This document shows positions 5,740 to 32,000 of a stretch of DNA of 32,000 bases, piece after piece; positions within the stretch are counted from its first letter, which is position 1; the number at the start of each line of letters is the position of its first letter. This DNA is from Nitrosococcus oceani ATCC 19707 (GTDB taxonomy: Bacteria; Pseudomonadota; Gammaproteobacteria; Nitrosococcales; Nitrosococcaceae). The stretch spans positions 1,080,001 through 1,112,000 of the forward strand of contig NC_007484.1 of NCBI RefSeq assembly GCF_000012805.1, in the 5' to 3' direction. Made by a program: the position numbers and the translations under genes. The notes below the pieces were generated by a model, which had not been told where the DNA came from, made no database searches, and saw only the letters and a program-made list of their open reading frames with translations.

Positions 5740-5861
5740 ATCTCGCTACTAGAAATACGGTGGCTATTGGAATATTAGAGCACCATGGGCCATTTTGGTA
5801 GGCACTAGGGGATGCTCTTCCCCTATGCTGGTTGGAATTTATTGCTCAAGGAGGTTTTATC

Positions 5862-6860
5862 ATGAGTCATAATAATTTGTGTTTATTTGCTCTCGGTATG
5901 GGTACTTCCTTTGGTCAAAAAGTAAGTGAAAGGCTAGGTGTGGCCTTGTCCAGGTGCGAGGAAAGGGATTTTGAGGATGGTGAGCATAAAATCCGCTCTT
6001 TAGTTAATGTGAGGGAAAAAGATGTATTTGTTATTCAACCCCTTTATAGTGACTCGCGGCAGAGTGTTAATGATAAATTATGCCGCTTGCTGTTTTTTAT
6101 CGGCGCCTTGAGAGATGCTTCTGCCAAACGAGTGACGGCGGTACTTCCTTATCTTTGCTATGCCCGGAAGGATCGAAAAACCCAATTCCGCGATCCGGTG
6201 ACTACCCGTTATGTGGCCAAACTATTAGAAGCGGTTCAGACTGATCGGGTGCTGGCTATGGATGTCCATAATCTGGCCGCTTTTCAGAATGCTTTTAATT
6301 GCCGGACTGATCATTTAGAAGCACAAAAGTTATTCGTTGATTATTTTTTGTCTTCTTCGATACTCTCAGAGCGTGATAAGGTGGTAGTCGTTTCGCCAGA
6401 TGCAGGTGGAACGAAGCGGGCGGAGCAGTTCCGGGAAGCATTGAGCAAGGCTCTGGGAAAAGAGGTGACTACAGCTTTTATGGAAAAGCAACGTAGTGGC
6501 GGTGTGATAAGGAAGGGTGGGGCCATGGCAGGCGAAGTCAAAAATAGGATTGCCATCATTATCGATGATTTAGTGAGCACCGGCACAACTTTGAATCGGG
6601 CTGCTGAAGTTTGCCAGGAGCGGGGAGCAAAAAAAATCTACGCTGCGGCCACTCATGGCCTCTTTGTGGGGCAGGCTAATGAAATTCTAGCGGCTTCTGC
6701 TTTGGAAAAGGTGATCATTGCAGATACTATTCCTCCTTTCAGATTGAATGAAAAAATAATTAAGGAGAAATTACAGGTAGTGGATTCAGCCAGGTTATTT
6801 GCGGATGCCATTCAATGCGTTCATTCAGGGAACTCACTTATTGAATTATTAGAAATTTAG
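5862..6860 (+). CDS. prs: ribose-phosphate diphosphokinase (PRPP synthetase) family, divergent
   Basis: Start trimmed to ATG 5862, with AAGGAGG 7 nt upstream. Prs hallmarks present: [30 protein letters not shown] and the PRPP loop [13 protein letters not shown]. It deviates from the canonical YARQDRK and DLHAxQIQGFF motifs (here [11 protein letters not shown]). Confidence 0.75.
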
Positions 6861-9043: not shown

Positions 9044-11779
9044 GTGCTGAAATTACCAATTCCATTGATTTGTGAGGATGATGTCTTTGCGGTACTAGGA
9101 GCGGGGGCGCTCCTGCTAACGATTAATAATCGTTTGGCGCGGGAACTTCAACATCGTTATGATCGGGTCCAGCAGGTAAAAGGATTAACCGTCTGGGAAA
9201 CGCCGCAAATTCTTCCTTGGTCGGTTTGGTTGCAGCGCTGTTACGATTATCAAACGTTGACTCTCACTGAAACAGATAATTCTAGCCCTGCCCTGCTTAG
9301 TCCCTTACAGGAACAAAGTTTATGGGAGCGGGTGATCTATGATTCGCCCTATAGCGGGGCGCTATTACAAGTTCCTGCCACGGTTCGTACAGCCCAGGAA
9401 GCATGGCGGCTGTGGCATGCCTGGCGCCTCCCCCTAGCGGGCCAATCCCTCTTTCTAACGGAAGATACCCAAGCTTTTCTAGAATGGGCTCAGGTTTTTG
9501 AGGACTATTGTCGGGTGGATCATTGGTTGGATAATGCCCGTTTACCCGATGCTGTGGGCGGGATGTTGGAAAGCGGGCAAATTCCTTTGCCGGGAACAGT
9601 TATCTTGGCAGGATTTGATGAATACACCCCCCAGCAACAAGAGCTTCTAGCCGTTCTTGAACGGCAGGGAGTTTTGCTTCAGGTCTTTGCTAATCAGGGC
9701 GGCTCACAACAAACCAGGCGGGTAGCCCTAGCCGATACGATAGAAGAGATTACTGTGGCGGCCCGCTGGGCTCGGCATAGGCTAGAACACTCTCCTGGGG
9801 AGAAGATTGGAGTTATTGTCCCTGAGCTGGAATTTTTACGGGTTCAGGTGGCGCGTATTTTCGATGATATCCTTCATCCTGAAGCTGTATTGCCAGGCCG
9901 GGGGAGGATAGAGCGGGCTTACAATCTTTCCTTGGCGCAGCCGTTAGCGGACAATCCTTTAGTTCATACAGCGCTACTTATTTTGGAGCTTAGCAAAGGG
10001 GAACTCTCCATGGTGGAGATGGGGGCGTTCTTGCGCTCGCCTTTTGTGGGTGCGGCAGAGCAGGAATTTTCTCATCGCGCCCTTTTGGATGCTTATCTCC
10101 GCAAGACTCGGGAAGAGAGGGTGTCGTTAGAACGCTTATGGAAGGCTGCTATTACAGCGCGGGAGGAGGACGCTAACCACAGGTGTCCCGCCTTGGGAGA
10201 ACGGCTCCAGCAGTTTAAGGTTGAGGTTGATTCATTGCCGGCGAGACAGCCTCCGAGCGGTTGGGCCCAGAGTTTTACCTGCTGGCTTCAATTGTTAGGC
10301 TGGCCTGGAGAGCGCCCCCTTGATAGTGAAGAATATCAAGCAGTTTCGGCTTGGCATAAAAGCATACAGTCTTTTTCCAGTTTGGATCGGGTAGTGCCCT
10401 CCTTAAAAAAAAATGTAGCCATTGGAAAATTCCGGCACCTGCTCGTGGAAACTTTGTTTCAACCCGAAAATCCTATTGTGCCGGTTCAGGTGATGGGGGT
10501 TTTGGAAGCGGCTGGCGAGCAGTTCGATGCCGCCTGGATGCTGGGACTGCATGATGGTATTTGGCCGACGGCGCCTCGCCCTAATCCCCTGCTACCCATC
10601 GAGCTGCAACGTCACTATCGTTTGCCCCATGCTTCCGCCGAACGGGAGCTGGCATATACTCGCGTGGTAACGGAGCGTTTGCTTGCCAGCGCACCTGTGG
10701 TCATTGTCAGTCACCCCCGCCGGGAGGGCGACAGGGATCTACGGCCTAGCCCCCTTATTGCTGAGCTAGCGTCTGTCCTTCCAGAAAGATTGCAATTAGC
10801 TTCGGTTGAGTCCTATGTCAATGAGATTCAGCAAACGGGGAGAATGGAAACTTTGGTCGACGCGCAGGGACCTCCCTTGGAAGCAGGCGCCCAGGTGGGG
10901 GGCGGCACCGGACTGCTTAAGGCTCAGGCTGCTTGTCCTTTCCGCGCTTTTGCCGAGTATCGCCTTGGCGCCAAAGGTCTTGAAGAACCCAGCGTGGGTT
11001 TAGAATCTTTGGACCAAGGAATTTTGATTCACGTTGCTTTGCAATATTTGTGGGAAAAATTGCAAAATCAGCATACCCTTTTATCCTGTAGCGCTGAAGA
11101 ATTACATGGGCTAATAGCAGAGGCAGCAAAACAAGCGATTGCTACGCAAACGGCAGTACGCCCCCGGATTTTTACCGAGCGGTTTACTGCTATAGAGCAG
11201 GAGCGGTTGGAGCAGTTGTTGCTGGAATGGCTGGAGCGGGACAAGCAACGGCCCCCTTTTGCCGTGTTGCATCAAGAGAGGTCTCAGCCCCTAAACCTTG
11301 GTGGTCTCAGTTTGGATACCAGGGCGGATCGGATTGATCAGTTGGAAAGCGGGGAGCGGGTTATTGTGGATTATAAGACCGGTCGCTCTAATCCCCGGCA
11401 CTGGTTTGGCGAGCGGCCCGAAGAGCCCCAGCTTCCTTTATATTGTATCGCCCATGAGGCACCTCTGGCGGCCGTCCTGTTTGCGCAAGTCCGTCGAGGA
11501 GAGATGAAGTATCTGGGGGTTACTAAAGAAGAAGGAAGTATGCCTGAAGTTGCTGTTTTTACTCGTGTTGCTGGCGGTCTAGACAGTTGGGAAGAGTTAT
11601 TAGCGCGATGGTTTCAGGTTCTCCACGCTCTTGCCGTGGAGGTCGTGGAGGGGTATGCGGCCGTAGCGCCAAGGGATGCTAACAGTTGCGATTATTGTGC
11701 TTTACCTGGGTTATGCCGGATTAAAGAGCTGGGCGGTGGCGCTGCTAAAAATAAAAAAGAACGGGACAGGAATGATTAA
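9044..11779 (+). CDS. AddB-like PD-(D/E)XK nuclease with Fe-S cysteine cluster (inactive helicase-like N-terminus)
   Basis: 911 aa. No Walker A motif seen. C-terminal RecB-type nuclease motif RADRIDQL...VIVDYKTG. Four cysteines arranged as AACPFRAF ... CDYCALPGLC (C-x2-C-x5-C), as in AddB/Cas4 iron-staple nucleases. The GTG start is uncertain. Confidence 0.8.
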   Translation: MLKLPIPLICEDDVFAVLGAGALLLTINNRLARELQHRYDRVQQVKGLTVWETPQILPWSVWLQRCYDYQTLTLTETDNSSPALLSPLQEQSLWERVIYDSPYSGALLQVPATVRTAQEAWRLWHAWRLPLAGQSLFLTEDTQAFLEWAQVFEDYCRVDHWLDNARLPDAVGGMLESGQIPLPGTVILAGFDEYTPQQQELLAVLERQGVLLQVFANQGGSQQTRRVALADTIEEITVAARWARHRLEHSPGEKIGVIVPELEFLRVQVARIFDDILHPEAVLPGRGRIERAYNLSLAQPLADNPLVHTALLILELSKGELSMVEMGAFLRSPFVGAAEQEFSHRALLDAYLRKTREERVSLERLWKAAITAREEDANHRCPALGERLQQFKVEVDSLPARQPPSGWAQSFTCWLQLLGWPGERPLDSEEYQAVSAWHKSIQSFSSLDRVVPSLKKNVAIGKFRHLLVETLFQPENPIVPVQVMGVLEAAGEQFDAAWMLGLHDGIWPTAPRPNPLLPIELQRHYRLPHASAERELAYTRVVTERLLASAPVVIVSHPRREGDRDLRPSPLIAELASVLPERLQLASVESYVNEIQQTGRMETLVDAQGPPLEAGAQVGGGTGLLKAQAACPFRAFAEYRLGAKGLEEPSVGLESLDQGILIHVALQYLWEKLQNQHTLLSCSAEELHGLIAEAAKQAIATQTAVRPRIFTERFTAIEQERLEQLLLEWLERDKQRPPFAVLHQERSQPLNLGGLSLDTRADRIDQLESGERVIVDYKTGRSNPRHWFGERPEEPQLPLYCIAHEAPLAAVLFAQVRRGEMKYLGVTKEEGSMPEVAVFTRVAGGLDSWEELLARWFQVLHALAVEVVEGYAAVAPRDANSCDYCALPGLCRIKELGGGAAKNKKERDRND

Positions 11780-14700
11780 TCCGTCTATCCCGGATGCCGA
11801 TGCCCGGCGGCAGGCCCTCAATCCCCATGGCTCCTTTATTGTGCAAGCGCCCGCCGGTTCAGGTAAAACAGAACTCCTAACCCAGCGTTACTTGATGCTG
11901 CTGGCGCGGGTGGAAGCGCCGGAGGAGATCGTCGCTATTACTTTTACCCGCAAAGCGGCTGCGGAGATGCGCTACCGGATCATAGCGGCCCTTGCCAGTG
12001 CCAAGGAGAACCAGCCGCCAAAAACTGAACCAGCCAAAACCACTTGGGATCTGGCTTGCGCGGTGCGGCGCCGCGATGAAGGGAAGGGATGGTCACTTGA
12101 GGACCATCCTGCCCGTTTGCGCATTCAGACTATTGATTCTCTCTGCGCCAGTTTAACCCGGCAGATGCCCCTTTTATCCCGCTTTGGCGCCCAGCCCGGA
12201 ATTACCGAAGATGCGGAGAGGCTCTATCGCCAGGCTGCGCACAGGACTTTGGCAGAGGTGGAAAGTGGCGCGGAATGGTCCGCTAGCGTGGAAACCTTGC
12301 TCCGCCATTTGAATAATAATTGGGGAAAAATCGAACGGCTGCTTTCGGCAATGCTTGCCCGGCGGGATCAATGGTTGCGCCATCTCGCTGGCGATGAACA
12401 ATTGCAGCGAGAAATTTTGGAAGAAGCGCTCCAGGGGGTTATCCAGGACGGATTGAAGCGGGCTAGCCGTTATTGTCCCGAGTCGATGCTGGCAGAAATA
12501 TTGGAGCTTGCCCGTTTCGCTGCTAGTAATGTTGCCGCTACTGCTCCAGCCTCTCCTATTCAGGCTTGTCGAGATCTCTGGAATTGGCCTGGAATCCAGG
12601 CCGAGGCATTACCCCATTGGCTAGGGCTAGCCCAGCTTTTGTTGACGGATGAGGGCGAATGGCGCCAGCAAGCAAATAAAAATATTGGTTTTCCCGCCCC
12701 TAGCGCTGCCCGCGGCCAGGAGGAGAGGCAATTTCTCAAGGAACAAAAACGCGCCTTGTTAGATTGTCTTGCACGTTTGGAAGGAGAAGAAGCGTTGCGC
12801 CGTGCGCTGCATGGTCTGCGTTTCCTGCCCTCGGCCTCTTACACGGCAGCTCAGTGGCAGTTGATGGAGGCTCTATTTCAACTCTTGCCCTTGGCGGTAG
12901 CTCAATTGCAATTGGTATTTCAAGAGCAAGGTGAAGTGGATTTTACCGAGGTGGCTCAGCGGGCAGTAGTCGCCTTGGGGGAGGCTGAGGCGCCCACGGA
13001 TTTAGCCTTGGCCTTAGATTACCAGATTCGGCATTTGCTGATGGATGAGTTTCAGGATACCAGTCTCAGTCAGTATATCTTATTGGAAAGGTTAACTCTT
13101 GGCTGGGAAGCGGGTGAGGGGCGGACTTTATTGGTGGTTGGCGATCCCATGCAGTCTATTTATCGCTTCCGAGAGGCTGAAGTGGGACTCTATTTGCAGG
13201 CTTGGTGGCAAGGAGTGGGGCTGTTGCCCCTGACGCCGTTAACCTTATCGGTGAACTTTCGCTCTCAGCAAGGCATTGTGGATTGGGTTAATCAGTCTTT
13301 TCGCCAGATTTTGCCGGTAGCCCAGGAAATAGCAACTGGCGCCGTCCCTTATAGTCAGTCCCATGCCTTTCATCCCCCTTTAATGGCACCGGCAGTCCAG
13401 ATTCATCCCTTTTTTGAAAAAGGCTCGCTAGCAGAAGCAAAAAGGGTGGTCCATCTGGTCCAGCAAACCAGACAGGCGGCGCCAAATTCTACTATTGCCA
13501 TCCTGGTACGCAGTCGGGGGCATCTAGCCGGGATTGTACCTCTGCTGAGAGAGGCGGGAGTGGGTTTCCGGGCCTTGGAGATTGAGCCCTTGGGCAGTCG
13601 TCCGATCGTGCAAGATTTACTGGCTTTGACCAAGGCCCTGTTTCATCTGGGGGATCGTCTTAGTTGGCTAACGGTGTTGCGCGCTCCTTGGTGCGGTTTA
13701 ACCTTGGCGGATCTCTATGTTCTGGCAGGTGAAGATAAGCAGGCAGCCGTTTGGGACCGTATCCAGGAAGATGCTTGTATTCAGGGGCTGAGCGAAGAGG
13801 GCCGGGAGCGGCTTGGCAGGCTCCGCCAGGTATTCGCCAAAGCTTTGGGAGAACGCCGGCGGACCTCTCCTCGCCGGCAGGTGGAAGGAGTATGGCTGGC
13901 TCTTGGTGGACCCGCCTGTGTGACTGATTCCATAGCGCTGGAGGAGGCTTCGGTTTACCTGGATTTGTTAGAGCGGGAGGCGGTAGCGGGTGAGATTCTT
14001 GATTTCAGAGCCCTGGAGGAGTCAGTAGCGCAGCTCTTTGCCCCACCGGATAAGGAGGCGGATGAGACTTTACAGATTATGACGATCCATCGAGCTAAGG
14101 GGCTGGAATTCGATACGGTGATTGTGCCTGGCCTAGGACGTCCCCCCCGTCATGAAAGTCACCAATTACTGCTTTGGGCGGAGCGCCCAACTGTCCATTA
14201 TCCAACGGGAGATGATGGCGCCCTCTTGTTAGCGCCTATTTCCGGGGCGGGCAGATCCCAAGATTCTATCTATCAGTATATTAAAAGGCTCCATGAAGAA
14301 AAGGGGGAATTCGAAAATGGTCGCCTGCTCTATGTGGCGGTAACGCGGGCAAAACACCGGTTGCATCTGTTTGGGCAGGTGGATCTGGATGACACAGGCA
14401 AACCCAAGGTGCCCTCAAAGCATTCTCTTTTGGCTTCTTTGTGGCCTGCGGTAAAAGGAAAATTCGAAGCAACGGCTCTTCTCCAAAGAGAAACCGAGAA
14501 TCGGGAAGAAGGAAGAGACCCAGGGGATTCTTCAATCTCTGGCTTTATTTCCCGGCTAAGCACCCAATGGCAATGTCCCGCCCCTATAGCAGGAGTTAAA
14601 GCGGATATCGAAGTTTTGCCGGAGGCAGCTTCTGCCTTGGATCCCATTGAATTTGATTGGGCGGGAGAGACCGCTCGTCATATAGGGACGGTAGTTCACC

Positions 14701-15212
14701 GCTATCTTCAAATCATTGCCGGGGAAGGCCCCGAGCACTGGAGCTTGGCTCGGATCACCGCGCTTGCGCCCGCCTTGCGCCAGGCGCTGATGCAACAGGG
14801 GGTAATGCCTAACGAGATGGAGAATGCCATAGAACGCGCCCGGGAAGTACTCAGGCAGACTCTCGAAGATCCGCGAGGGCGTTGGATTCTTGCTTCGAAC
14901 TACCGGCAGGCGCGGAATGAATATTCTTTGAGCGGTGTTTTAAACGGTCGAATTATCCGGGCGGTTATTGATCGCACCTTTATTGATGAGGCAGGAGTTC
15001 GGTGGATTGTGGATTATAAAACCGGCGTCCATGAAGGTGGTGGTAGGGAGGAATTTCTCAATAGAGAACAGGAGCGCTATCACCCTCAGCTGGAGCGTTA
15101 TGCTGCTCTGATGGCGCTTAAAGTACCTGGGACGGAGAAAATACGATTGGGGCTTTATTATCCTCAGATAGGCGGTTGGCGAGAGTGGGAGTGGTCTAAA
15201 AAAATCTTTTAA
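11772..15212 (+). CDS. AddA-like UvrD/Rep-family helicase with C-terminal RecB-type nuclease
   Basis: Start trimmed to ATG 11772 (MINPSIPDADARRQAL...), overlapping the upstream stop by 8 nt. Walker A APAGSGKTE, DEFQDT box, nuclease motif IDRTFIDEAGVRWIVDYKTG. Confidence 0.85.
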   Translation: MINPSIPDADARRQALNPHGSFIVQAPAGSGKTELLTQRYLMLLARVEAPEEIVAITFTRKAAAEMRYRIIAALASAKENQPPKTEPAKTTWDLACAVRRRDEGKGWSLEDHPARLRIQTIDSLCASLTRQMPLLSRFGAQPGITEDAERLYRQAAHRTLAEVESGAEWSASVETLLRHLNNNWGKIERLLSAMLARRDQWLRHLAGDEQLQREILEEALQGVIQDGLKRASRYCPESMLAEILELARFAASNVAATAPASPIQACRDLWNWPGIQAEALPHWLGLAQLLLTDEGEWRQQANKNIGFPAPSAARGQEERQFLKEQKRALLDCLARLEGEEALRRALHGLRFLPSASYTAAQWQLMEALFQLLPLAVAQLQLVFQEQGEVDFTEVAQRAVVALGEAEAPTDLALALDYQIRHLLMDEFQDTSLSQYILLERLTLGWEAGEGRTLLVVGDPMQSIYRFREAEVGLYLQAWWQGVGLLPLTPLTLSVNFRSQQGIVDWVNQSFRQILPVAQEIATGAVPYSQSHAFHPPLMAPAVQIHPFFEKGSLAEAKRVVHLVQQTRQAAPNSTIAILVRSRGHLAGIVPLLREAGVGFRALEIEPLGSRPIVQDLLALTKALFHLGDRLSWLTVLRAPWCGLTLADLYVLAGEDKQAAVWDRIQEDACIQGLSEEGRERLGRLRQVFAKALGERRRTSPRRQVEGVWLALGGPACVTDSIALEEASVYLDLLEREAVAGEILDFRALEESVAQLFAPPDKEADETLQIMTIHRAKGLEFDTVIVPGLGRPPRHESHQLLLWAERPTVHYPTGDDGALLLAPISGAGRSQDSIYQYIKRLHEEKGEFENGRLLYVAVTRAKHRLHLFGQVDLDDTGKPKVPSKHSLLASLWPAVKGKFEATALLQRETENREEGRDPGDSSISGFISRLSTQWQCPAPIAGVKADIEVLPEAASALDPIEFDWAGETARHIGTVVHRYLQIIAGEGPEHWSLARITALAPALRQALMQQGVMPNEMENAIERAREVLRQTLEDPRGRWILASNYRQARNEYSLSGVLNGRIIRAVIDRTFIDEAGVRWIVDYKTGVHEGGGREEFLNREQERYHPQLERYAALMALKVPGTEKIRLGLYYPQIGGWREWEWSKKIF

Positions 15213-21775: not shown

Positions 21776-23959
21776 TTAACCGTTTGCTAACCGCGCTGAA
21801 AGGTGGGTCAGGCGGGAGGTTACATGAGTCCTTTTGACGGCAATGGCAAGCGCTTTAGGCTGTCCCACAATGACAACCAGTTTTTTGCCCCGGGTAACGC
21901 CAGTGTAGAGCAGATTTTTCTGTAGCATGGTATAGTGCTGGGTGGCTAGGGGAATGACGACTGCGGGGTATTCGGAACCCTGGCTTTTGTGCACCGAGAT
22001 AGCGTAGGCCAAAGCAATTTCGTCAAGCTCGCCTAACTCGTATTCTACCTCTCGGTCATCGATGCTGATATACACGAGACTTTCCTCAATATCTATTCTT
22101 GTTATTTTGCCGATATCTCCATTGAAGACTTCTTTATCATAATTATTGACGGTCTGAATGATCTTATCGCCCAGGGCAAAGGTCCAACCGAACCGGTTGA
22201 TCTTGGGGCTGGCTTGGGCATTGAGTTGCTGTTGCAGAAGCGCATTAAGCGCCTGTGCTCCAAGGCTGCCGCGGTTCATGGGGGTAAGAACTTGAATATC
22301 GCGAATGGGGTCAAAGCCGAAGCGTTTAGGAATCCGCGTGCTTACTAATTCTAGGAGCCTATCCTGGATGGTTTCGGGAGACTCGGTGGGAATAAAATAG
22401 AAATCGCTGAGCGGGGCTGCTTCATGGGTTCTCTCGGGCATTTTTCCTTGATTGATTCGATGGGCATTGACAACGATTTTGGATCTGGCTGCTTGGCGAA
22501 AAACCTCGGTGAGGTGGACAGCGGTGATTTTTTTGGAAGCAATAATATCCGCTAGCACCTGCCCTGGCCCTACCGAAGGTAGCTGATCTCTATCGCCTAT
22601 CAATATGCACGCCGCATGACTGGGGATGGCTTGGAGTAGCTGATTCATCAATCCCACGTCGACCATGGAAACTTCATCAATAATGACAAGATCCGTATGG
22701 AGGGGGTTACCCCTATGATGCTTGAAACCTATGGCATGAGGATTAAATTCAAGCAGACGGTGGATTGTTTTGGCTTCAAAACCGGTCGATTCGGCAAGCC
22801 GTTTTGCTGCCCGCCCGGTGGGTGCCCCAAGGTGTATCTGGATTTGCTTGACCTGAACAATTCGGATAATGCTATTGACGACAGTGGTTTTACCGACCCC
22901 CGGTCCCCCGCTAATGACAATGATTTTGCTGCCGACTGCTTGTGTAACCGCTGCGCGCTGAGAGGGAGAAAGGCGCAATCCCGTTTTCTCTTCCGCCCAG
23001 GGGATTGCCTTATCCGTATTGATTTCTCCCCAAGGGGGACGACCCTGAAGGAGGCGTTGCAAATGTTTGGCGACCCCCGTTTCAGAGCGATAAAGGGGAG
23101 TAAGAAAGAGGCAGGATTTGTCATGAATAACTTCGGCGATGAGTTGCCCTGCGGTGACTTCTTGAGCAATGGCTTGTTCGATAGTAGGAACAGGGATTTC
23201 CAGTAATTTACTAGCTGTTTCCACTAACTTGTCCTGCTCCATCGCGCAGTGTCCTTCGGTCGTAAATTCCTGGAGTACATGACGGACTCCCGCCTGGGCG
23301 CGGATGAGAGAATCGGCGGGGATTCCTAGTCGTTGGGCAATCCTATCGGCGGTTTTAAAGCCGATGCCATGGATATCTAGAGCCAGCCGGTAAGGATTTT
23401 CGCGAACCCGTTCGATAGCGTGATCGCCATAGGTCTTATAAATACGAACCGCCCTGGCGCTGCCTACGCCCTGGGATTGCAGAAACACCATGATAGCGCG
23501 AACCGCTTTTTGTTCTGCCCAGGACTGGATGACTCGCGCTTTGCGCTTGGGGCCGATACCGTCTAATTCGGTGAGGCGCTCGGCTGTATGTTCGATAACT
23601 TCGAAAACCTGCTCACCGAAGGCTTGCACCAGTTTCTTGGCGAAGTGGGGGCCGATTCCCCTGACCATGCCCGAGCCGAGATATTTTTCAATCCCTTCGA
23701 GGGTGCTGGGGGGGATGACTTTCAGATGTTTTGCTTTGAACTGAAGTCCATGGGTGCGGTCGTTAATCCACTCACCGCGACATTCCACATATTCCCCCGG
23801 CGTGACCGTAGCGGTATTGCCAACTACGGTGACGAGATTGTGTTCACCACGTACTTTGATTCGCAGGACGCAGAATCCGGTTTCCTCGCTATGAAAAGTA
23901 ACCCGTTCTATGGTGCCGGCGAGGAACTCAGGCGAGGCTTCTGGGTGGAAAGCGTTCAT
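21776..23959 (-). CDS. recD2: RecD2-like SF1B DNA helicase
   Basis: 727 aa. N-terminal OB/HhH-like region, Walker [10 protein letters not shown], Walker [11 protein letters not shown], and C-terminal [14 protein letters not shown]...[11 protein letters not shown]. Confidence 0.85.
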
Positions 23960-24048
23960 TGGCCTGCTGGGGTGGCCAGAATCCAGTCCATAAGCGTTTG
24001 AAAAAATAATGGTGTTATAAATTTTCCTCTAGCCCGCGCCCCGCTAGC

Positions 24049-24520
24049 TTAGGCGATGATAATTGGGTTTTGAGGTGAATCAAAAAATGCTTTAGCGCTG
24101 CCTATTTCGAGTAACCGGCCTGCGCCTTCTTGCACCCAGAACGAGGACGCATTATCGACGATACGGCGAGCTTAAGCAAGGTTGTGGGTGACCATCAGGA
24201 TGGTGATTTCTTGGCTTAGTTTGATCATTAGATCTTCGATCACTTGGCTAGCGGATAAAAATTGTGCCGGAGCGTTTAATCGATATTCGATCTCTTCCCA
24301 CAGGCCAACTTCTTTCAGTACTTTCTCTTATGTTCAAAACGAATGCATCCCTTGACGCAGTATACCGGAATTAAATCGGCGATCCGGTTTAGCGCGATTA
24401 GAAAAATGATTTTGCCATAGCTAGAGGGCCTGATTAAAGCTATGGCTTCATCTTTTAGGAGAGTGAGGTCTCTCAGAGCGAGTTTAGGGCCATAATAAAC
24501 TGGTAGAAATTAACTTCAAT
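24049..24520 (-). pseudogene. pstB: phosphate ABC transporter ATPase PstB relic
   Basis: Minus-strand translation gives:
- IEVNF / VYYGPKLALRDLTLLKDEAIALIRPSSYGKIIFLIALNRIADLIP, a frameshift plus a degenerate Walker A
- then ...EITILMVTHNLA*ARRIVDNASSF...FDSPQNPIIIA*, with an in-frame TAA where the conserved Q sits.
The LSGGQ signature and Walker B region are deleted. Confidence 0.65.
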
Positions 24521-25330
24521 GAAGGAACAGGTATTTGCAGAAGAAGTAGATTTGAAAGCCCACGGGAAGAGGTTTCCAGATTTTAAGTTTACTAAATTCT
24601 TCTTGATGGGGAGAAGAAAATAAAAAGTAAAGTTTTGCTGGACTCATGGAAGAATAACTTTTTGTAACCAGCACCGAGCGAACCAGTGGGCCGCCCCCAT
24701 TGATAAGCAGGAGGAAAGTAGTGAGCACCGGTGCTGAAGCATAGGCAGTTGAAGACCCGCCGGGTACATTCATAGCGAGATCGTAGGTATGCAGGGAAAG
24801 CGCACGACCTGAATCGCGCCAAGAACCAGGCATTCGATCCACATGGCCACCGGCACTTCGATCCATTCACCCACAGGCTGCCAGACATAAGGCACACATA
24901 GGGGTGAGAGGAAAACCACTAGCGTCGACAAAATACGGGTCAAGGTCTCCTGGGGGCGTACTGGGTTCTGAGGGTTTCAACGACCTGCTTACCCTGCTCA
25001 AAAGTTTGCGGCTCTCTTTTGTCCTTTAAAGACCGGCGAGGACGTTTCCACCGCAGGTGGGATTTTCCTCCCAGCCCTTCGGATAGTGTGGACACTATGA
25101 GCTACTTTCCTCTTTTAATTCACAATCTCTTCTCTCTGGCCATTCGCTTCGGGGCACGGGCATGGGCTTTAAGGAGTGGTTCACCATCCTTGCTCTTGGG
25201 AGCCAGCTCTTCTCCACTCGTCCACTACGCACTTGCTCTTCTCAACCGATAATCCCTCTCTGCTCCTAACGATTAAACCAGCTTACCACCGTCCCCTAGC
25301 TTCGCTCCATAAACCTGCCCAATCTCATCA
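24516..25330 (-). mobile_element. degraded DDE transposase gene, IS630/Tc1-like by motif order
   Basis: Minus-strand fragments in several frames: GLSVEKSKCVVDEWRRAG (HTH-like), DPYFVDASGFPLTP (first-D region), LLLINGGGPLVRS (second-D region, D lost), and LYFLFSSPHQEEFSKLKIWKPL (resembles LPPYSPELNPIE-VW). Multiple stops and frameshifts. No terminal inverted repeats identified. Confidence 0.4.
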
Positions 25331-25699
25331 ATTTTAGGTAGCGGTGAGAACGAAGGCAAGGTAAAATTTAAATAAGAATTTTGCTCAATCGTTGAAGGAA
25401 TATAGGGATGTATGAGGACCCCCAGCGAGCGCGCGAAGTGAAATGGCACATGGAGCGCGAGGGCCACATTAATTGCTTTTCGCCGTGAATTCGCGCTAGC
25501 CTTCCCCCTTTGCCAAGAGCGCGACCTACCGGCGGGAAGCCGGGAAGTGATGCGCCTGGAGGGTGATATCCAACTGAAGGCCTTGCGTGTTAAGTCGTGG
25601 CCAGCCTAAAGCACCCGTTGAAGCGCGAATTTTCCAAACGGATAAAATTTTGTAGGCACAAAACTGAGATCAGTCATGGCGAGACTCCAAATGGAGTGT

Positions 25700-26446
25700 C
25701 TATGCTCGCTGGTACGTGACAAGTAGAGGTTTATGATCGGAAGGGGCAATGTCACCTACAAAAAAATCCACCACATCGCAAGTCATGGGTTGTAGGGGGC
25801 CCCAGTGAAGCACCCAGTCTACGACTTGGGGAGTATGAACATAGGTGGGATAAGCGGGGCGAGTGATCTGGGGGATGCGGCCTAAAGCAGTAAAGCAATC
25901 AGTGAGGCCACCTTCCTGGAGTATTTTTAATGGCGAATAATGATCGTTAAGATCCCCCATGAATAGTAGTGGTGAGGACTGCGTCGCTAGTCGGCGTAGC
26001 ATTTTGATAGTGTTGAGAGCTTGGGCAACACGTACATTGACTCTATCGCTGCGTTCCTGGCGGTTGCCGGGCCAGGTGTAGTGGGCGGTGGCCACCAAGA
26101 GGGGTGGTCCGCCGGTAATCTTAGGTTGTAACCGGACCCAAAAGAGGCGGCGCCACTGCTCTAGAATTCCAATGTCTTCCGCGCCGTATTCGAGCAGATT
26201 GAAAAGCGACTCATTCCAATAAATGTTGCTTTCTCCCTTCCAACCTTCAAAGGAGTCATCCACCCGCTGATGGGTCGGGAGCGCCTGATCCAGTAAACAT
26301 TGGCTTTGGGAGCAGAATTCTTGCGCGCATAGAATGTCCGGCCGATGAAGAGTAATGAATTGTCGCAAGGGTTCTTGCCGCTCCGGCCAGCGTTCATCTT
26401 GCCATAAATTATAGGTGCAGACCACAAAGCGCAAAGAGCTGGACAT
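25700..26446 (-). CDS. endonuclease/exonuclease/phosphatase (EEP) family protein
   Basis: 248 aa. N-terminal VCTYNLW, ILCAQEF, internal GDLND and C-terminal PSDHKPL are the EEP-fold catalytic motifs. GAGGA lies 7 nt upstream of the ATG. Confidence 0.75.
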   Translation of the reverse strand: MSSSLRFVVCTYNLWQDERWPERQEPLRQFITLHRPDILCAQEFCSQSQCLLDQALPTHQRVDDSFEGWKGESNIYWNESLFNLLEYGAEDIGILEQWRRLFWVRLQPKITGGPPLLVATAHYTWPGNRQERSDRVNVRVAQALNTIKMLRRLATQSSPLLFMGDLNDHYSPLKILQEGGLTDCFTALGRIPQITRPAYPTYVHTPQVVDWVLHWGPLQPMTCDVVDFFVGDIAPSDHKPLLVTYQRA

Positions 26447-26496
26447 AGTAATCCTCTATAGCCGGAGTAGAGGTGGAACCTCTTTAGCCCGACCTG

Positions 26497-27486
26497 CTAC
26501 AGATAGTCATTAGCCTGAAACCAGCTAATCGCATCATGAATCGCTTCCTGGGCGGGGCGGGATTGATAACCTAGCAGTTGTTCCGCCTTAGTGCTAGAAA
26601 AAAACATATATTTCTTTGCCATCCGCACGCCATCGACAGTGGTCATGGGTTCTTTGCCGCTGGTCAGGCGGGCCCAGCCTTGGGCAAGATGGGCGATAGG
26701 CAGGACCGCATGAGGGGAAAGCCGGAATCTGGGGGGACGGCGGTGGGTAAGCTGGGCGATTGCTTCTAGAATATCGCGCAGAGTGAGATTTTCTCCTCCA
26801 AGGATATAACGCTCGCCAATGCGGCCTTTTTCAAAGGCCAGGAGATGGCCGGCGGCCACATCATCCACATGGACTACGTTGAGGCCAGTGTTCATATAGG
26901 CGGGCATGCCTCCCGAAGCGGCCATGACAATGACTCTGCCGGTAGGCGTGGGTTTGATATCCCGCGGTCCAATGGGGGTGGAGGGATTCACAATCACGAT
27001 ATTCAGCTTCAGCCGGTGTCCTAGATCCTTGATGGACTCCTCAGCCAAGAATTTAGATCGTTTATAGTGGCCGATCATGGTTTCAAGGCTGGAAGGGGTC
27101 TCCTCATGGGCTGGCGTGCCATCAGGGCTTAATCCCAGCGTGGCGACGCTACTGGTGTAAACAATACGGTTAACGCCGGCTTCCGCCGCAGCGTGCATGA
27201 TATTTTGGGAGCCCTGGACATTAGTGTCATAAAAGTCTTGCGAACGGGGGGCCCATAAGCGGTAATCAGCCGCGACATGAAAAAGGGCTTGGCAGCCATG
27301 GAGCGCTTTTTCTAGGCGCCGTTGATCCTTGAGATCGCCTTCAAAGATTTCTACGGGTAGCCCTTCCAAATTACGCCGATTGCTATTAGAGCGGGCTAAT
27401 ACCCGGACGGTTTCTCCCGCATCGAGTAGTTGTTTGACTACCGCCGAGCCCACGAAGCCGGTTGCACCGGTAACAAAGCTGGTCAT
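26497..27486 (-). CDS. hpnA: NAD-dependent epimerase/dehydratase, hopanoid-associated sugar epimerase (HpnA)-like
   Basis: TGATGFVGSAVV Rossmann motif, YKRSK (YxxxK), and long stretches that match my recollection of the HpnA family (VAADYRLWAP, VNPSTPIGPRDIKPTPTGR, GERYILGGENLTL, VDGVRMAKKYMFFSS). The subfamily call was not verified by search. Confidence 0.7.
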   Translation of the reverse strand: MTSFVTGATGFVGSAVVKQLLDAGETVRVLARSNSNRRNLEGLPVEIFEGDLKDQRRLEKALHGCQALFHVAADYRLWAPRSQDFYDTNVQGSQNIMHAAAEAGVNRIVYTSSVATLGLSPDGTPAHEETPSSLETMIGHYKRSKFLAEESIKDLGHRLKLNIVIVNPSTPIGPRDIKPTPTGRVIVMAASGGMPAYMNTGLNVVHVDDVAAGHLLAFEKGRIGERYILGGENLTLRDILEAIAQLTHRRPPRFRLSPHAVLPIAHLAQGWARLTSGKEPMTTVDGVRMAKKYMFFSSTKAEQLLGYQSRPAQEAIHDAISWFQANDYL

Positions 27487-27535
27487 GGTCCTTGTTTCCT
27501 CGTGGGTAGTCGAAGTAGAGTTTGAAGCAGCATAG

Positions 27536-28075
27536 CTAAAAAGCTAAGGGTAGCGAATAGGTCAAAAGTATTTCGTTTTCGCCGGGATTATCATCATGGA
27601 GACCGGCGTTGGAGATATGAGAGAGGCGCACCCCAAGGCGGGAGTCGCCATCAAATTGATAGGCAAAAGTAATGGCGGTACGAAATTGAAAAATTCCTCC
27701 AAGATCTTTACTCCCGCCTTGGTGATATCCTCCCACGGTGGCGAGTGGGGTAACGATTAAACGTCGGTATTTGAGATCAGCATAAAAACCACCATAGCCG
27801 AAAACACCGCCGTCCGTATTCGCCATTATTCCCATAACGGGACCGATGAAAGATAGTTTCTTCCCATAACGGTATTCAATATAACCGGCAGCGGTGGGAT
27901 CATCACTAAAGTTAAAGGCGCCAGCCCCAAAGTCCAAGTAGCTTGGCTCATCGGCAAGAAATTCAATATCGCCCAGGCTGAACGCGGCAGACTGGGAATC
28001 TTCCGCTAGTGCAATATGGCCCCAAGCTAAGAAAGCCAGTATGGTCCCTATTATCTTTTTTGAGCATGCTTTCAT
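27536..28075 (-). CDS. outer-membrane acyloxyacyl hydrolase / lipid A 3-O-deacylase (PagL)-like beta-barrel
   Basis: Signal peptide (ILAFLAWGHIALA). Alternating beta-strand pattern. C-terminal H-I-S-N...E motif (SHISNAGLHDDNPGENE) resembles the PagL His-Ser-Glu catalytic arrangement. Terminal aromatic residue (F). Confidence 0.65.
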   Translation of the reverse strand: MKACSKKIIGTILAFLAWGHIALAEDSQSAAFSLGDIEFLADEPSYLDFGAGAFNFSDDPTAAGYIEYRYGKKLSFIGPVMGIMANTDGGVFGYGGFYADLKYRRLIVTPLATVGGYHQGGSKDLGGIFQFRTAITFAYQFDGDSRLGVRLSHISNAGLHDDNPGENEILLTYSLPLAF

Positions 28076-28472: not shown

Positions 28473-28925
28473 ATGGCTTTGAGTTGGTTAAAGGGTAAAT
28501 TTAATGAAGTCTCTACCAATCTGAAAAACGAGACGACGAAGATCAGGAATAAAGATTTCCTTGAAGGCGTAATTGCAGGCTGCACCCTGGTCGCCTATGC
28601 CGATGGGGTTGTCAAACCTGAAGAGAAGCAAAAAATGATGGGGTTTTTGCAGACATCGGAGGTATTGTCGGTTTTTGACACGGAGAATGTTATCAAGTTG
28701 TTTGAAAAGTTCTCTGCTCAATTCGAGTTTGATCCGGCTATTGGCGAAGCCAATGCACTTCAAGCGGTCAGTAAAGTCAAAAAGAAAGAAGGAGAAGCCC
28801 GACTTTTGGTACGGGTTTGTTGCGCAATTGGGGCATCGGACGGTGATTTTGACGACGCTGAAAGAAAAACGGTGAGCAAAATCTGCTCAGAACTGGGATT
28901 AAATCCCGCTGATTTTGATCTTTAA
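28473..28925 (+). CDS. terB: tellurite-resistance protein TerB
   Basis: Start trimmed to ATG 28473. The sequence ...FLEGVIAGCTLVAYADGVVKPEEKQKMMGFLQTSEVLSVFDTENVI...GASDGDFDDAERKTVSKICSELGLNPADFDL closely parallels enterobacterial TerB over its full length. Confidence 0.9.
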   Translation: MALSWLKGKFNEVSTNLKNETTKIRNKDFLEGVIAGCTLVAYADGVVKPEEKQKMMGFLQTSEVLSVFDTENVIKLFEKFSAQFEFDPAIGEANALQAVSKVKKKEGEARLLVRVCCAIGASDGDFDDAERKTVSKICSELGLNPADFDL

Positions 28926-28948
28926 GAAGACTGATAAAGGAGTAAATA

Positions 28949-29527
28949 ATGGCGGTAACCCTACAGAAAGGACAGAATGTATCCCTGAGCAAAGAAGCCC
29001 CCGGTCTAAAAGAGGTTGCGTTTGGGCTAGGGTGGGATGCTCGCTCTACCGATGGCACTGATTTTGATTTGGATGCTAGCGCGCTTATCTTAGGCGAAAG
29101 CGACAAGGTATTAAGTGATAACCATTTTGTTTTCTATAACAATGCGACTGATCCTAGCGGTGCCGTAACCCATACAGGTGACAATCGTACCGGCGAGGGA
29201 GAAGGGGATGATGAAAAAATCATTGTTGATGTTTCTAAAATGCCGGCAGAGGCAAAAAAAGTTGTTTTTGTCGTCACCATCCATGAGGCGGAGTCCCGCA
29301 ATCAAAATTTTGGCCAGGTAAGTAACGCGTTTATTCGTGCGATTAATAATGCTGACAATGCAGAGATTGCCCGTTATGATTTATCGGAGGATGCTAGTAT
29401 TGAAACGGCAATGATTTTCGGAGAATTTTACCGCCATGGCGAGGAATGGAAATTTAAGGCGGTGGGCCAGGGCTACGCGGGTGGATTAGCCGGCGTAGCC
29501 AGGGATTTTGGCGTCAATATTGGCTAA
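28949..29527 (+). CDS. terD: TerD-family stress protein
   Basis: AAGGAG lies 8 nt upstream of the [18 protein letters not shown]...[20 protein letters not shown]...[16 protein letters not shown]...[40 protein letters not shown] is near-canonical TerD. Confidence 0.92.
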
Positions 29528-29542
29528 GGATATCTATTGCGG

Positions 29543-29571
29543 GAGCGCGCTGGCGGATGGCCGGCGCGCTC
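29543..29571 (+). terminator. GC-rich stem-loop without U-tract (possible partial terminator or RNA-processing/stability element)
   Basis: GAGCGCGCTGGC-ggatg-GCCGGCGCGCTC forms a 12-bp stem with one G-U pair and a 5-nt loop. It starts 16 nt after the terD stop. It is followed by AACAGTAG, with no T-run. Confidence 0.35.
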
Positions 29572-29591
29572 AACAGTAGATGGACTACTGA

Positions 29592-30710
29592 ATGAGCCAT
29601 ACTATTCATCTTGCTGCGGGGACTTTGACCATTGAAGTCCACCAAGCCCTTCTTCCGCTGCATGATTTATTAGATTTTGCTAGCCGAATTAACCCCAAGC
29701 GCGGATATTTGTTTGTTTCCAAGGTGCTTGGCAAGCATATTCCCTGCCAGCCTTCGAGAATGCGGGATATTTACAATCGCTTAGCCCTGTCTCTTTTAGA
29801 GATACCCGGCCCCGCTATTTTTATCGGTATGGCTGAAACGGCTACGGGCTTGGGCGCTGGGGTTGCAGATAGTTTAGTTCGAAGAACACAGCGCTGTGAT
29901 ATTGTTTTCCAACACACAACCCGCCATAGCCTGCCGGTCAGCGAATGGATGCGTTTTGATGAAGCGCACAGCCATGCGCCTGAGCATATCCTCTATCTGC
30001 CTTTGCCGGTTTTTCGTGAACGATTCTCCCAAGCACAAACCTTGGTTCTTGTGGATGATGAAATCAGCACAGGGCGGACGCTGAGAGAGCTAAGCTACAG
30101 AGTGATACAAGCGTTACCCCATATTCGGCAAATTATGCTGGTGTCAATTGTCAATTGGCTTTCGCCCGCTCAAAAGCAGGTATTTCAAGAAAATGTTAAC
30201 CGGCCGGTGTCTTTTGTTAGTTTGTTAGAAGGCGTGTTTTCGTTTATTCCTAATTTGGAATTTAGCCCTTCCTTGCCAGGAAAAGCTAGGCTATTTCAGC
30301 CGGCGCGGCATGCTTGCCAGCAGACCGGCCGGCGGGGAATAGAGATAGGAGAAAAGTTCCAGGTGTCGAACGGTCCTTATCCAAAGGAGCGTAAGGTGTC
30401 TGTGGTGGGGACCGGTGAGTTTCAATTTCAACCTTTTTTATGGGCGGAGCAGCTGGAAAGAAAAGGCTTTGATGTTCTGTTTCAGAGCACTACCCGTTCC
30501 CCTATTCGGGTGGGCGGACCCATTGGCGAAAGTCTTAGCTTCAAAGATGAATATGGGGGAGGCATCCATACCTATCTTCATAATCCTCCTCGCGGCAGGG
30601 AAGTTATTATTGCCTACGAATTTGCCGAATTAGCACGTAATCACAATCTTCCGGAGCAGCTTGGTGGAAGTATTTGGGGAGCGGCTGCCAATACGGGATG
30701 GGATGGCTGA
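29592..30710 (+). CDS. Ter-associated phosphoribosyltransferase-domain protein (PRTase_2 + TRSP-like C-terminus)
   Basis: N-terminal ...INPKRGYLFVSKVLGKHIP... and the PRPP-binding loop LVLVDDEISTGRTL. The 372-aa architecture matches the PRTase found next to ter genes. The family call is from memory and not verified by HMM. Confidence 0.75.
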   Translation: MSHTIHLAAGTLTIEVHQALLPLHDLLDFASRINPKRGYLFVSKVLGKHIPCQPSRMRDIYNRLALSLLEIPGPAIFIGMAETATGLGAGVADSLVRRTQRCDIVFQHTTRHSLPVSEWMRFDEAHSHAPEHILYLPLPVFRERFSQAQTLVLVDDEISTGRTLRELSYRVIQALPHIRQIMLVSIVNWLSPAQKQVFQENVNRPVSFVSLLEGVFSFIPNLEFSPSLPGKARLFQPARHACQQTGRRGIEIGEKFQVSNGPYPKERKVSVVGTGEFQFQPFLWAEQLERKGFDVLFQSTTRSPIRVGGPIGESLSFKDEYGGGIHTYLHNPPRGREVIIAYEFAELARNHNLPEQLGGSIWGAAANTGWDG

Positions 30711-31454
30711 ATGGAGCGTTCCGTATTCATCTTTTCTGATCTAGATGATACTTTGTTGCAGACTCAACGCAAATGCGGGGTATCGGGTCCATTAACGGAG
30801 GCGGCGGTCGATAGAGAAGGCCGTCCCTTGTCTTTCCACTCCCAGGAACAATTATTGTTGTTGCGGCTCTTTAAAGCTTGCACTTTGATTCCCGTGACCG
30901 GACGCAATTTAGAGGCGTTGGGTCGAATTCGCTCACCCCTCTTTTCCAGCTATCGGGTCACTAGTCACGGTGCATTGGTTTGGGATGCCAATAATGCTTT
31001 AATCCCGGAGTGGGAGAGCACCATTAGGGGAGAGGCGCTGATTTGGGAACCGCGGATGCAACGTCTTCTTGCGGTAATGGAGGGCTATCAGCGGGCGGAG
31101 CAGGTAGAAAATTTGCGGTTTCGTATTATTTATGATGCACAGATACCTGTCTATCTTTCTATCAAGGGTAGCCCCGGACAGCTTTCAGCAGTCGAGGAGA
31201 TAGTGGCTCCAGTTTGGGTCCAGGAAATGGGAGGAAAATTTCACCGCAATGACCATAATATGGCGCTCCTTCCTCCTTATGCGGATAAGGGCAGGGCTGT
31301 GAAATACATCATGACGCTGATCCGCCAACGTTGTGAAGGGCCACCGTTATTTATTGGTATGGGTGACAGCTTGACCGATATTCCTTTCCTCCGTGCTTGC
31401 CATTACGCGCTTACACCGCAAAATAGTCAAATTCAACAGGAAGCTTGGATGTGA
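30711..31454 (+). CDS. HAD-superfamily phosphatase
   Basis: The ATG abuts the upstream TGA directly. HAD motif I FSDLDDTLL, motif II VTGR, motif IV GMGDSLTD. Confidence 0.8.
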   Translation: MERSVFIFSDLDDTLLQTQRKCGVSGPLTEAAVDREGRPLSFHSQEQLLLLRLFKACTLIPVTGRNLEALGRIRSPLFSSYRVTSHGALVWDANNALIPEWESTIRGEALIWEPRMQRLLAVMEGYQRAEQVENLRFRIIYDAQIPVYLSIKGSPGQLSAVEEIVAPVWVQEMGGKFHRNDHNMALLPPYADKGRAVKYIMTLIRQRCEGPPLFIGMGDSLTDIPFLRACHYALTPQNSQIQQEAWM

Positions 31455-32000
31455 GCCGGGCGGTGGATCGCCCCGTCGGGATTGAACCTGGGCTTTCTCC
31501 TATCACGGGAAGTTACCGCCAGGACGATTGCCAATTTTTATTGACTCCACTCCAAGCCGAATTCTTCTCCATCCAAGAGAAGGAACGCCTGATTCAATCG
31601 GGTGAGAAGCATTATTCGGAGATGATCAGCTTTGAATCACCGCCTAGCGAAGCTTATTTAACCTTATTCCGAAACTTAACCCAGCGCCATAAAGGCCGTT
31701 TGGCTGCCGAAGTGATGAGGCTGGCGCAGAGTATTGTTAATACTCGACTGGCGCCTATTACTCTGGTGTCGCTGGTTCGAGCGGGTACGCCCATCGGGGC
31801 TTTATTGCAACGGGCCTTGAGCCGTCACCTCCAAGTGGATTCCCGGCACTATTCCATTTCTATTATCCGAGATCGGGGAATTGATGAACAAGCTTTAAAA
31901 TTCTTATTAAGAGAACATCGGCGTCCGGCGGCGGGGGTGGTATTTGTGGATGCCTGGACGGCCAAAGGAGTCATCACCGAAGAGTTAAAACGGGCCATTG
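31451..32000 (+). CDS. StiP-like protein, N-terminal PRTase_1 domain (partial, runs off window)
   Basis: Not in the ORF track because it is open-ended. GTG at 31451 overlaps the HAD stop (ATGTGA). Translation VSRAVDRPVG...SYRQDDCQFLLTP...GEKHYSEMISFESPPSEAYL...LVSLVRAGTPIGALL...VVFVDAWTAKGVI resembles the N-terminus of the StiP family linked to ter clusters. The start could instead be GTG 31463. Confidence 0.65.
   Translation, partial: MSRAVDRPVGIEPGLSPITGSYRQDDCQFLLTPLQAEFFSIQEKERLIQSGEKHYSEMISFESPPSEAYLTLFRNLTQRHKGRLAAEVMRLAQSIVNTRLAPITLVSLVRAGTPIGALLQRALSRHLQVDSRHYSISIIRDRGIDEQALKFLLREHRRPAAGVVFVDAWTAKGVITEELKRAI

Follow-up and report, generated by a model that had tools for sequence, protein, structure and literature searches.

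In 2012 Anantharaman, Iyer and Aravind predicted that Ter proteins are linked to a module of enzymes producing a 'nucleoside-like metabolite', a prediction summarised in passages of PMC11994780 and PMC7824862, and later papers repeat the module as predicted and uncharacterised (PMC11994780, PMC12054061, PMC7824862). The module is widespread, in major pathogens among others; as to its product, our full-text literature searches (with the Pfam family names, StiP, ter together with phage defence, and Nitrosococcus together with tellurite) found no study defining it, in agreement with an earlier note on the DNA analysed here, which had called the metabolite uncharacterised. This DNA is a stretch of 32,000 nucleotides (nt) of Nitrosococcus oceani ATCC 19707 (NC_007484.1, positions 1,080,001 to 1,112,000 of the forward strand), to which we refer as the window and whose numbering is used throughout. 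The locus at its 3' end is almost certainly a chromosomal eight-gene Ter stress operon carrying the 'nucleoside-like metabolite' module, and the window holds its first five genes. As the expected families are present on the window and on contigs identical to it, the link to the Ter-associated module of phosphoribosyltransferases (PRTases), HAD phosphatase, lyase and PELOTA domain, which the earlier note had drawn, is borne out.

Like the module described in 2012, the N. oceani locus has TerB, two TerD proteins, TerC, a PRTase_2 protein with a TRSP domain, StiP with a PELOTA_1 domain, a HAD phosphatase and a C-C_Bond_Lyase protein, and its enzyme genes follow the order found in most loci. Unlike the five-enzyme version of that module, it has no ATPgrasp_Ter gene within about 10 kb. 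It also differs from the systems of 2012 in having no TerY/vWA, TerX, TerW or TelA and in its TerC, which is of the DUF475 subtype, and in that its eight genes make up a single strand-continuous operon and not two divergent ones. The terZABCDEF and terXYW loci of IncHI2 plasmids, E. coli O157, Klebsiella and Yersinia pestis share the PRTase_2-HAD-StiP-lyase cassette, the proteins of which are 35-42% identical between N. oceani and the loci of Y. pestis (L077) and of a plasmid (L084). However, the enterobacterial loci carry five or six TerD paralogues (TerZ, A, D, E, F) and a TerC of the PF03741 type, they are mobile, and their ATP-grasp gene stands just 5' of PRTase_2 with the ter genes on the opposite strand, whereas the N. 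oceani operon belongs to the core genome. With two TerD paralogues, a DUF475-type TerC and a different gene order, it falls outside the classical terZABCDEF group, which is defined by at least four TerD paralogues and a PF03741-type TerC. The yceCDEFGH-type cluster of Bacillus altitudinis 3W19 is likewise chromosomal and has the same four enzymes and no ATP-grasp; it differs in the order lyase-PRTase-StiP-HAD, placed after the ter genes, and in its three TerD paralogues, YceG and TelA/YceH (PMC11994780). The N. oceani locus thus adds another case of an association described in 2012 and is not a new system. It will not surprise a specialist and is no more tractable than the enterobacterial or Pseudomonas loci, and what it offers is a compact, single-operon, ATP-grasp-free copy whose eight genes could be expressed as a unit, together with three useful leads, namely a link between its HAD phosphatase and a solved structure (PDB 6cj0), natural losses of the HAD gene and the PRTase fold of StiP.

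The extent of the operon became apparent beyond the edge of the window. The PRTase_2 protein of the window is 100% identical to one of N. oceani ATCC 19707. Three assembled contigs share 4.9 to 12.3 kb with the window without a single base difference; two pass position 32000, and one of these, L002, runs about 10 kb further. The full gene order, on one strand and with short spacers, is terB, terD, PRTase_2/TRSP, HAD-IIB, StiP/PELOTA_1, CitE-like C-C lyase, TerC and terD. The complete StiP protein has 374 amino acids (aa) and a C-terminal PELOTA_1 domain (Pfam StiP 4.5e-100, PELOTA_1 2.9e-30), and it is directly followed by the C-C_Bond_Lyase gene (Pfam 8.7e-99). A membrane protein of the TerC family, DUF475 subtype, is encoded at 10168-11169 of L002 (Pfam DUF475 4.9e-110, TerC 5.2e-19), and behind it stands the second terD (Pfam TerD 9.2e-55); these two genes lie 1.6 to 3.3 kb beyond position 32000. 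Both TerD copies carry, as read from their translations, the motif GDN(R/L)TGEGEGDDE typical of calcium-binding TerD proteins.

Within the window the five open reading frames (ORFs) are all on the plus strand and tightly spaced, with gaps of 23 nt, 64 nt and 0 nt and then a 4-nt overlap, exactly as the earlier note had described them. The motifs that it had listed, LVLVDDEISTGRTL in the third protein and DLDDT and GDSLTD in the fourth, are in place, and its five family assignments hold, four of them by Pfam (TerB, TerD, PRTase_2 with TRSP, and StiP) and that of the HAD protein by a solved HAD-IIB structure; in particular, profile searches assign the frame at 29592-30710 to PRTase_2 and TRSP and the one starting at 31451 to StiP, the former PRTase_1. 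Less fortunate was its view of the locus as a minimal version in which only soluble TerD and TerB stand beside the biosynthetic genes, as the PELOTA_1 part of StiP, the C-C_Bond_Lyase, TerC and a second TerD follow. Its remark that no TerC is in view is literally true of the window and false of the locus; the system appeared minimal and TerC-less because the window ends inside the operon. Of the three genes that the note had proposed to look for past position 32000, the HpcH/CitE-like lyase and TerC were found, and an ATP-grasp gene was not found within about 10 kb.

The enzyme cassette is conserved far beyond N. oceani. A PRTase_2 profile scan, with one genome per species, matched at least 600 stretches, of which 583 were confirmed as relatives, and the best 80 loci were kept. 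These were annotated by BLASTP with the N. oceani proteins and with reference ATP-grasp and enterobacterial TerC proteins, identified by Pfam in Yersinia and Pseudomonas loci. Gene order was counted in the 68 loci with at least 4 kb after PRTase_2, and neighbours in the 49 loci whose flanks reach 8 kb or more on each side (long-flank loci). HAD, StiP and lyase follow immediately downstream of PRTase_2, in this order, in 54 of the 68. TerD is within reach in 38 of the 49 long-flank loci, TerB in 32, TerC in 24 and ATPgrasp_Ter in 21. Since 20 of the 38 Ter-linked loci, that is those with TerD, are likewise without a nearby ATP-grasp gene, ATP-grasp is not universal and the ATP-grasp-free arrangement of N. 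oceani is not unusual; its architecture is a common form of a cassette that is very widespread. The loci come from Gammaproteobacteria, Betaproteobacteria, Alphaproteobacteria, Myxococcota, Planctomycetota, Bacteroidota, Deinococcota and Melainabacteria; in all, more than 5,000 PRTase_2 homologues were scored, and the HAD is carried on 2,559 plasmids.

Closer to N. oceani, synteny extends over the entire operon and its upstream flank in N. wardiae, Ca. Nitrosoglobus and Ca. Nitrosacidococcus, with proteins 62-95% identical, and the Nitrosococcaceae with conserved operon flanks include genomes of about 1.8 Mb. TerB itself has orthologues of 150 aa and 73-89% identity at the equivalent position in these three relatives. 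In these four Nitrosococcaceae the operon is part of the vertically inherited core genome and not an island, and conservation of the gene order, which the earlier note had left to be checked in related genomes, is found both in this family and in the wider set of loci. In two loci HAD and StiP form a single ORF (L032, 11119-12975, 618 aa; L069, 11091-13004, 637 aa; sequencing errors are not excluded), and these come from a Gemmataceae metagenome-assembled genome and from Ewingella; such a fusion argues that HAD and StiP work together. No Ter gene lies within 8 to 10 kb in 11 of the 49 long-flank loci, which suggests that the enzymes are able to work outside the Ter context. As a side observation, relatives in Competibacter and Contendobacter have a Glyco_trans_1_2 gene directly 5' of the enzyme cassette (L011-L015, L019, L021, L024, L026, L031), and most of those with long flanks have no Ter gene within 10 kb.

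Both PRTase-like proteins of the cassette were examined at the level of fold, and the predicted folds support their assignment as PRTases. In PRTase_2, a type I phosphoribosyltransferase, the phosphoribosyl pyrophosphate (PRPP) loop LVLVDDEISTGRT is intact, and D155, D156, E157, T160 and G161 are invariant among 16 homologues. Its AlphaFold model has a mean predicted local distance difference test (pLDDT) of 90.1, and the top Foldseek matches are APRT, OPRT and XPRT (best E 7e-7). As the search with the StiP fragment cut by the window edge gave mostly partial proteins, the StiP fold was modelled on a homologue of 302 aa, 57% identical, and not on the N. oceani protein. The model of this homologue (pLDDT 89.2) has type I PRTases (HGPRT, XGPRT, PyrR) as all of its top 46 Foldseek matches in the Protein Data Bank (PDB), with no protease fold among these 46. 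The conserved StiP motifs SLARAGTPxG and FVDGWTGKG fit the pyrophosphate and ribose-5-phosphate loops of PRTases. When StiP was compared with the PDB by sequence, only weak L7Ae matches were obtained, in the C-terminal PELOTA part, and a profile-profile comparison of StiP with PRTase_2 detected no sequence relationship (probability 1.8%); the two proteins are related at the level of fold only. The lyase aligns with CitE and with acyl-CoA lyase beta chains; CitE structures match it at E 2e-5, and the alignment with M. tuberculosis CitE includes its GGNDL and IHPSQIP stretches.

Unlike the other members, the HAD protein is only poorly covered by family profiles, as it has a sub-threshold Pfam match to Hydrolase_3 (7e-4) and sub-threshold matches to HAD-IIB in NCBIfam. 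Among solved structures it is best matched, over its full length, by PDB 6cj0, 6d3v and 6d3w, which were deposited under the name 'Trehalose phosphatase' of Pseudomonas aeruginosa, and the DxDDT, T and GDSxTD catalytic motifs are conserved between the N. oceani protein and 6cj0. The two are about 30-35% identical, and the substrate of the N. oceani enzyme may therefore differ from that of the P. aeruginosa protein. We find that the crystallised protein has its own place in the Ter module. It shares 79% identity with the HAD whose gene lies between PRTase_2 and StiP in Pseudomonas huaxiensis, and 60-79% with cassette HADs from thirteen further loci of Pseudomonas, Burkholderia and related bacteria, the link being seen also at 8983-9741 of L087 and 11094-11852 of L048. 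On the P. aeruginosa plasmid CP109686.1 a gene 99.6% identical to that of 6cj0 lies inside a ter cassette, again between PRTase_2 and StiP; the genes there run ATP-grasp ... PRTase, 'trehalose phosphatase', StiP, HpcH/CitE lyase, HAD-IB, TerD ... TerB, TerC, TerD, TerD. Judged by its sequence, the HAD of the window is the orthologue of the crystallised P. aeruginosa 'trehalose-6-phosphate phosphatase', and GenBank too names the P. aeruginosa orthologue trehalose phosphatase.

The P. aeruginosa HAD is said to hydrolyse trehalose-6-phosphate. To our knowledge, this activity has never been interpreted in a Ter context, and the connection of the HAD and 6cj0 to the Ter module seems to have been overlooked until now. 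As 6cj0 is encoded in a ter cassette, structures and an in-vitro assay already exist for one of the enzymes of the Ter module. The report on the enzyme, Cross et al., FASEB J 2018, is cited in passages of PMC6838324 and PMC7549927. Neither HAD has an OtsB or trehalose-6-phosphate phosphatase family match in NCBIfam, where only sub-threshold generic HAD-IIB or MPGP matches were seen, and no trehalose-6-phosphate synthase gene was found in or near any cassette examined; we consider that trehalose-6-phosphate is probably not the physiological substrate of the cassette HAD.

The spacer between the first terD and PRTase_2 contains a GC-rich hairpin with a folding energy of -39.3 kcal/mol (z -7.6), and the longer stretch 29520-29600 folds with -43.2 kcal/mol (z -6.1). 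A hairpin is found at the equivalent site in four Nitrosococcaceae, in the relatives at 7933-8003 of L089, 7947-8003 of L090 and 7928-8003 of L088. In the consensus fold of these four sequences 7 of the 27 pairs keep pairing despite changes on both sides, and 4 of these 7 are in the core stem. A U-run directly 3' of the hairpin is present in Ca. Nitrosoglobus and Ca. Nitrosacidococcus, both of which have lost the HAD gene (see below), and is absent from N. oceani and N. wardiae. The hairpin resembles a terminator or an attenuator, and the versions with a U-run are suggestive of an intrinsic terminator. With four sequences compared, its conservation is suggestive rather than proof. A conserved hairpin after terD fits partial termination, with TerB and TerD more abundant than the enzymes, and it probably raises the level of terB-terD transcripts above that of the enzyme genes. 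Rfam was searched with a permissive threshold for the extended locus and with gathering thresholds for the whole window, and no riboswitch or other known RNA came up; no tRNA genes were found, and scans for promoter and terminator consensus sequences gave nothing clearly above shuffled expectation. The sole Rfam candidate, a c-di-GMP-II match in the upstream epimerase region, is well below threshold and was taken as chance. A ribosome-binding site, AAGGAG, lies within the spacer between terB and terD.

Based on these data, we regard an eight-gene Ter operon joined to enzymes of a ribose-linked small molecule as the best explanation of the locus, and a fairly probable one. Following Anantharaman et al. 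2012, we offer a scheme for its working which, taken as a whole, is more tentative and somewhat short of an even chance. The CitE-like lyase would make or trim a small carbon skeleton that serves as acceptor, and PRTase_2 would couple this acceptor to PRPP to give a ribotide. StiP, with its predicted divergent PRTase fold and its L7Ae/Pelota-like domain, could carry out a second ribosyl transfer, or it may bind the ribotide or RNA. HAD-IIB would then strip the 5'-phosphate to leave a riboside, by a logic like that of CobT/CobC or OtsA/OtsB. Finally, the calcium-binding TerD and TerB, with the membrane protein TerC, may respond to the compound or use it in envelope or metal stress.

Several points weigh against this explanation. 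The chemistry is inferred, for every member of the module, from sequences and models, and binding of the product by TerB and TerD is likewise a proposal. The only biochemistry said to exist for the HAD family is hydrolysis of trehalose-6-phosphate, not of a nucleotide. ATPgrasp_Ter, near many of the long-flank loci as counted above, was found in none of the four Nitrosococcaceae (N. oceani, N. wardiae, Ca. Nitrosoglobus and Ca. Nitrosacidococcus), where the search covered the 8 to 10 kb around the operon and not the rest of the genome, and therefore the pathway in these organisms may be shorter or different. The PRPP-like loop of StiP is one residue shorter than usual and has a single acidic residue, so that catalysis may be altered or the domain may only bind. 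Moreover, Reichert et al. 2013 reported protease activity of StiP and a tellurite-sensitive mutant in Acinetobacter baylyi, as related in a passage of PMC11994780. Lastly, the HAD gene has decayed or gone in two related genera that keep the seven others. In Ca. Nitrosoglobus it has been reduced to frame-broken remnants in a 330-nt gap (L090, 9120-9449), and in Ca. Nitrosacidococcus it is deleted, leaving a gap of 75 nt (L088, 9093-9167), whereas the remaining seven operon proteins are intact and 62-93% identical in both. Dephosphorylation is therefore either dispensable or done by another enzyme, and the natural loss suggests that it may be the phosphorylated intermediate that functions.

As the HAD gene is lost in these two genera, it is conceivable that the ribotide, and not the free riboside, is the active product. 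We accordingly considered whether the Nitrosococcaceae cassette is a housekeeping operon with a 5'-phosphorylated ribotide as product, a hairpin that sets the ratio of TerB and TerD to the enzymes, and a constitutive role in the envelope or in metal supply. We regard this version as doubtful; if true, it would mean a constitutive role, such as the provision of metal through TerC for periplasmic or intracytoplasmic-membrane enzymes, and not one confined to stress or directed against phages.

A related possibility is that the enzymes produce, instead of a signal, a ribosylated compound or cofactor that binds metal and is used by TerC and TerD for metal homeostasis or to provide envelope enzymes with metal. 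The TerC of the operon is a DUF475/TerC-family membrane protein, and the TerC family is linked to manganese and zinc export and to metal loading onto secreted enzymes. In Klebsiella, deletion of terC lowers resistance to zinc and manganese, and zinc is the strongest inducer of the operon (PMC12054061), while conservation in the core genome of ammonia oxidisers, which are rich in metal enzymes, fits a housekeeping role. Metal binding by the product is nevertheless conjecture, and the cassettes that have no Ter gene nearby, such as those of Competibacter with a glycosyltransferase neighbour, indicate that the enzymes can work without TerC. A metal-cofactor role rather than a signal is plausible; as the explanation of the locus we hold it to be unlikely.

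Whether StiP is a second PRTase at all bears on the ribose-linked pathway that we prefer, since Pfam and NCBI name it a cysteine protease, which would place regulatory proteolysis in the operon. C-terminal to the PRTase core, StiP has an invariant His and a nearly invariant Cys within DFHGC, and these may be related to the reported protease activity of the Acinetobacter protein. However, the predicted fold matches PRTases alone among the 46 structures mentioned above, and SLARAGTPxG and FVDGWTGKG sit at the pyrophosphate and ribose-5-phosphate positions of that fold. We thus judge a protease in place of a second PRTase to be quite improbable, and the modelled fold would call into question the name 'cysteine protease' that is now spreading in annotation.

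The earlier note had favoured a minimal, TerC-less system for anti-phage or stress signalling, or for a toxin nucleoside. To this end one can point to the want of a visible TerC inside the window, to the long-known phage-inhibition phenotypes of plasmid ter operons and a phage phenotype tied to terC in Klebsiella (PMC12054061), and to the Ter cassettes carried by jumbo phages (PMC7824862). The TerC-less part is refuted by the TerC and second TerD on the identical contigs. As for phage defence, PADLOC-DB 2.0 gave no match for seven of the eight proteins and for PRTase_2 one weak match (PRTase_III-A, E 0.0046), so that none of the eight has a significant one, and the operon sits among housekeeping neighbours with flanks conserved across Nitrosococcaceae, as part of a vertically inherited core genome, which is not the usual behaviour of a defence island. 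We consider this proposal very unlikely. That the HAD is a true trehalose-6-phosphate phosphatase and the cluster serves the synthesis of trehalose as a compatible solute is scarcely credible, despite the full-length match to the three structures and the GenBank label, as no synthase gene or OtsB-type profile match accompanies it, the HAD gene always has a PRTase-fold gene on either side, two loci have it fused to StiP, and it was lost in two related genera that kept the rest of the operon.

The features of the eight-gene operon that lie inside the window are collected in Table 1.

Table 1. Operon features inside the N. oceani window, in window numbering.
Feature	Position	Strand	Evidence
terB, operon gene 1	28473..28925	+	150 aa; Pfam TerB 1.7e-23
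terD, copy 1	28949..29527	+	192 aa; Pfam TerD 2.4e-85, full domain
GC-rich hairpin, spacer between terD and PRTase_2	29531..29582	+	folding free energy; comparison of four Nitrosococcaceae
PRTase_2 + TRSP protein	29592..30710	+	372 aa; Pfam PRTase_2 4.5e-66, TRSP 9.7e-13
HAD-IIB phosphatase	30711..31454	+	247 aa; full-length match to PDB 6cj0, E 4.4e-24
StiP (PF11202, former PRTase_1), N-terminal 183 codons	31451..32000, open at window edge	+	Pfam StiP 4.4e-65

Among the neighbours, genes for an EEP-family phosphatase/nuclease, an NAD-dependent epimerase and a PagL-like lipid A deacylase occupy 25700-28075 on the minus strand, divergent from terB. They were rejected as members of the system, since they keep their place beside the operon in all four Nitrosococcaceae but in none of the 80 other loci; an EEP gene does stand next to the P. 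aeruginosa cassette, and it is an unrelated one. At the other end, a nicotinate-phosphoribosyltransferase-like gene follows the second terD (L002, 12457-13839, about 35920-37302 in window numbering); it is found there in N. oceani and N. wardiae only and is probably an unrelated neighbour and not a part of the operon. A PRPP-synthetase-like gene at 5832-6860 was also considered as a partner of the cassette, and it is not linked to it, lying 21 kb upstream among housekeeping genes.

Further upstream, an AddAB-like helicase-nuclease pair (9044-15212) has a G+C content of 0.51-0.56, compared with about 0.45-0.49 around it. A RecD2-like helicase of 727 aa is intact in the window (21776-23959, minus strand), and the corresponding gene of N. 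oceani AFC27 (GCA_000155655.1; L001, 2085-4368) is called as two fragments; the sequences of AFC27 and the window diverge upstream of the ter region. Between recD2 and the EEP gene lies a stretch of about 1.7 kb (24002-25699) with only short ORFs that have no family matches, and with no Rfam family or tRNA gene. The matching interval of N. wardiae holds an ABC-transporter operon, and the stretch in N. oceani may be a deletion scar.

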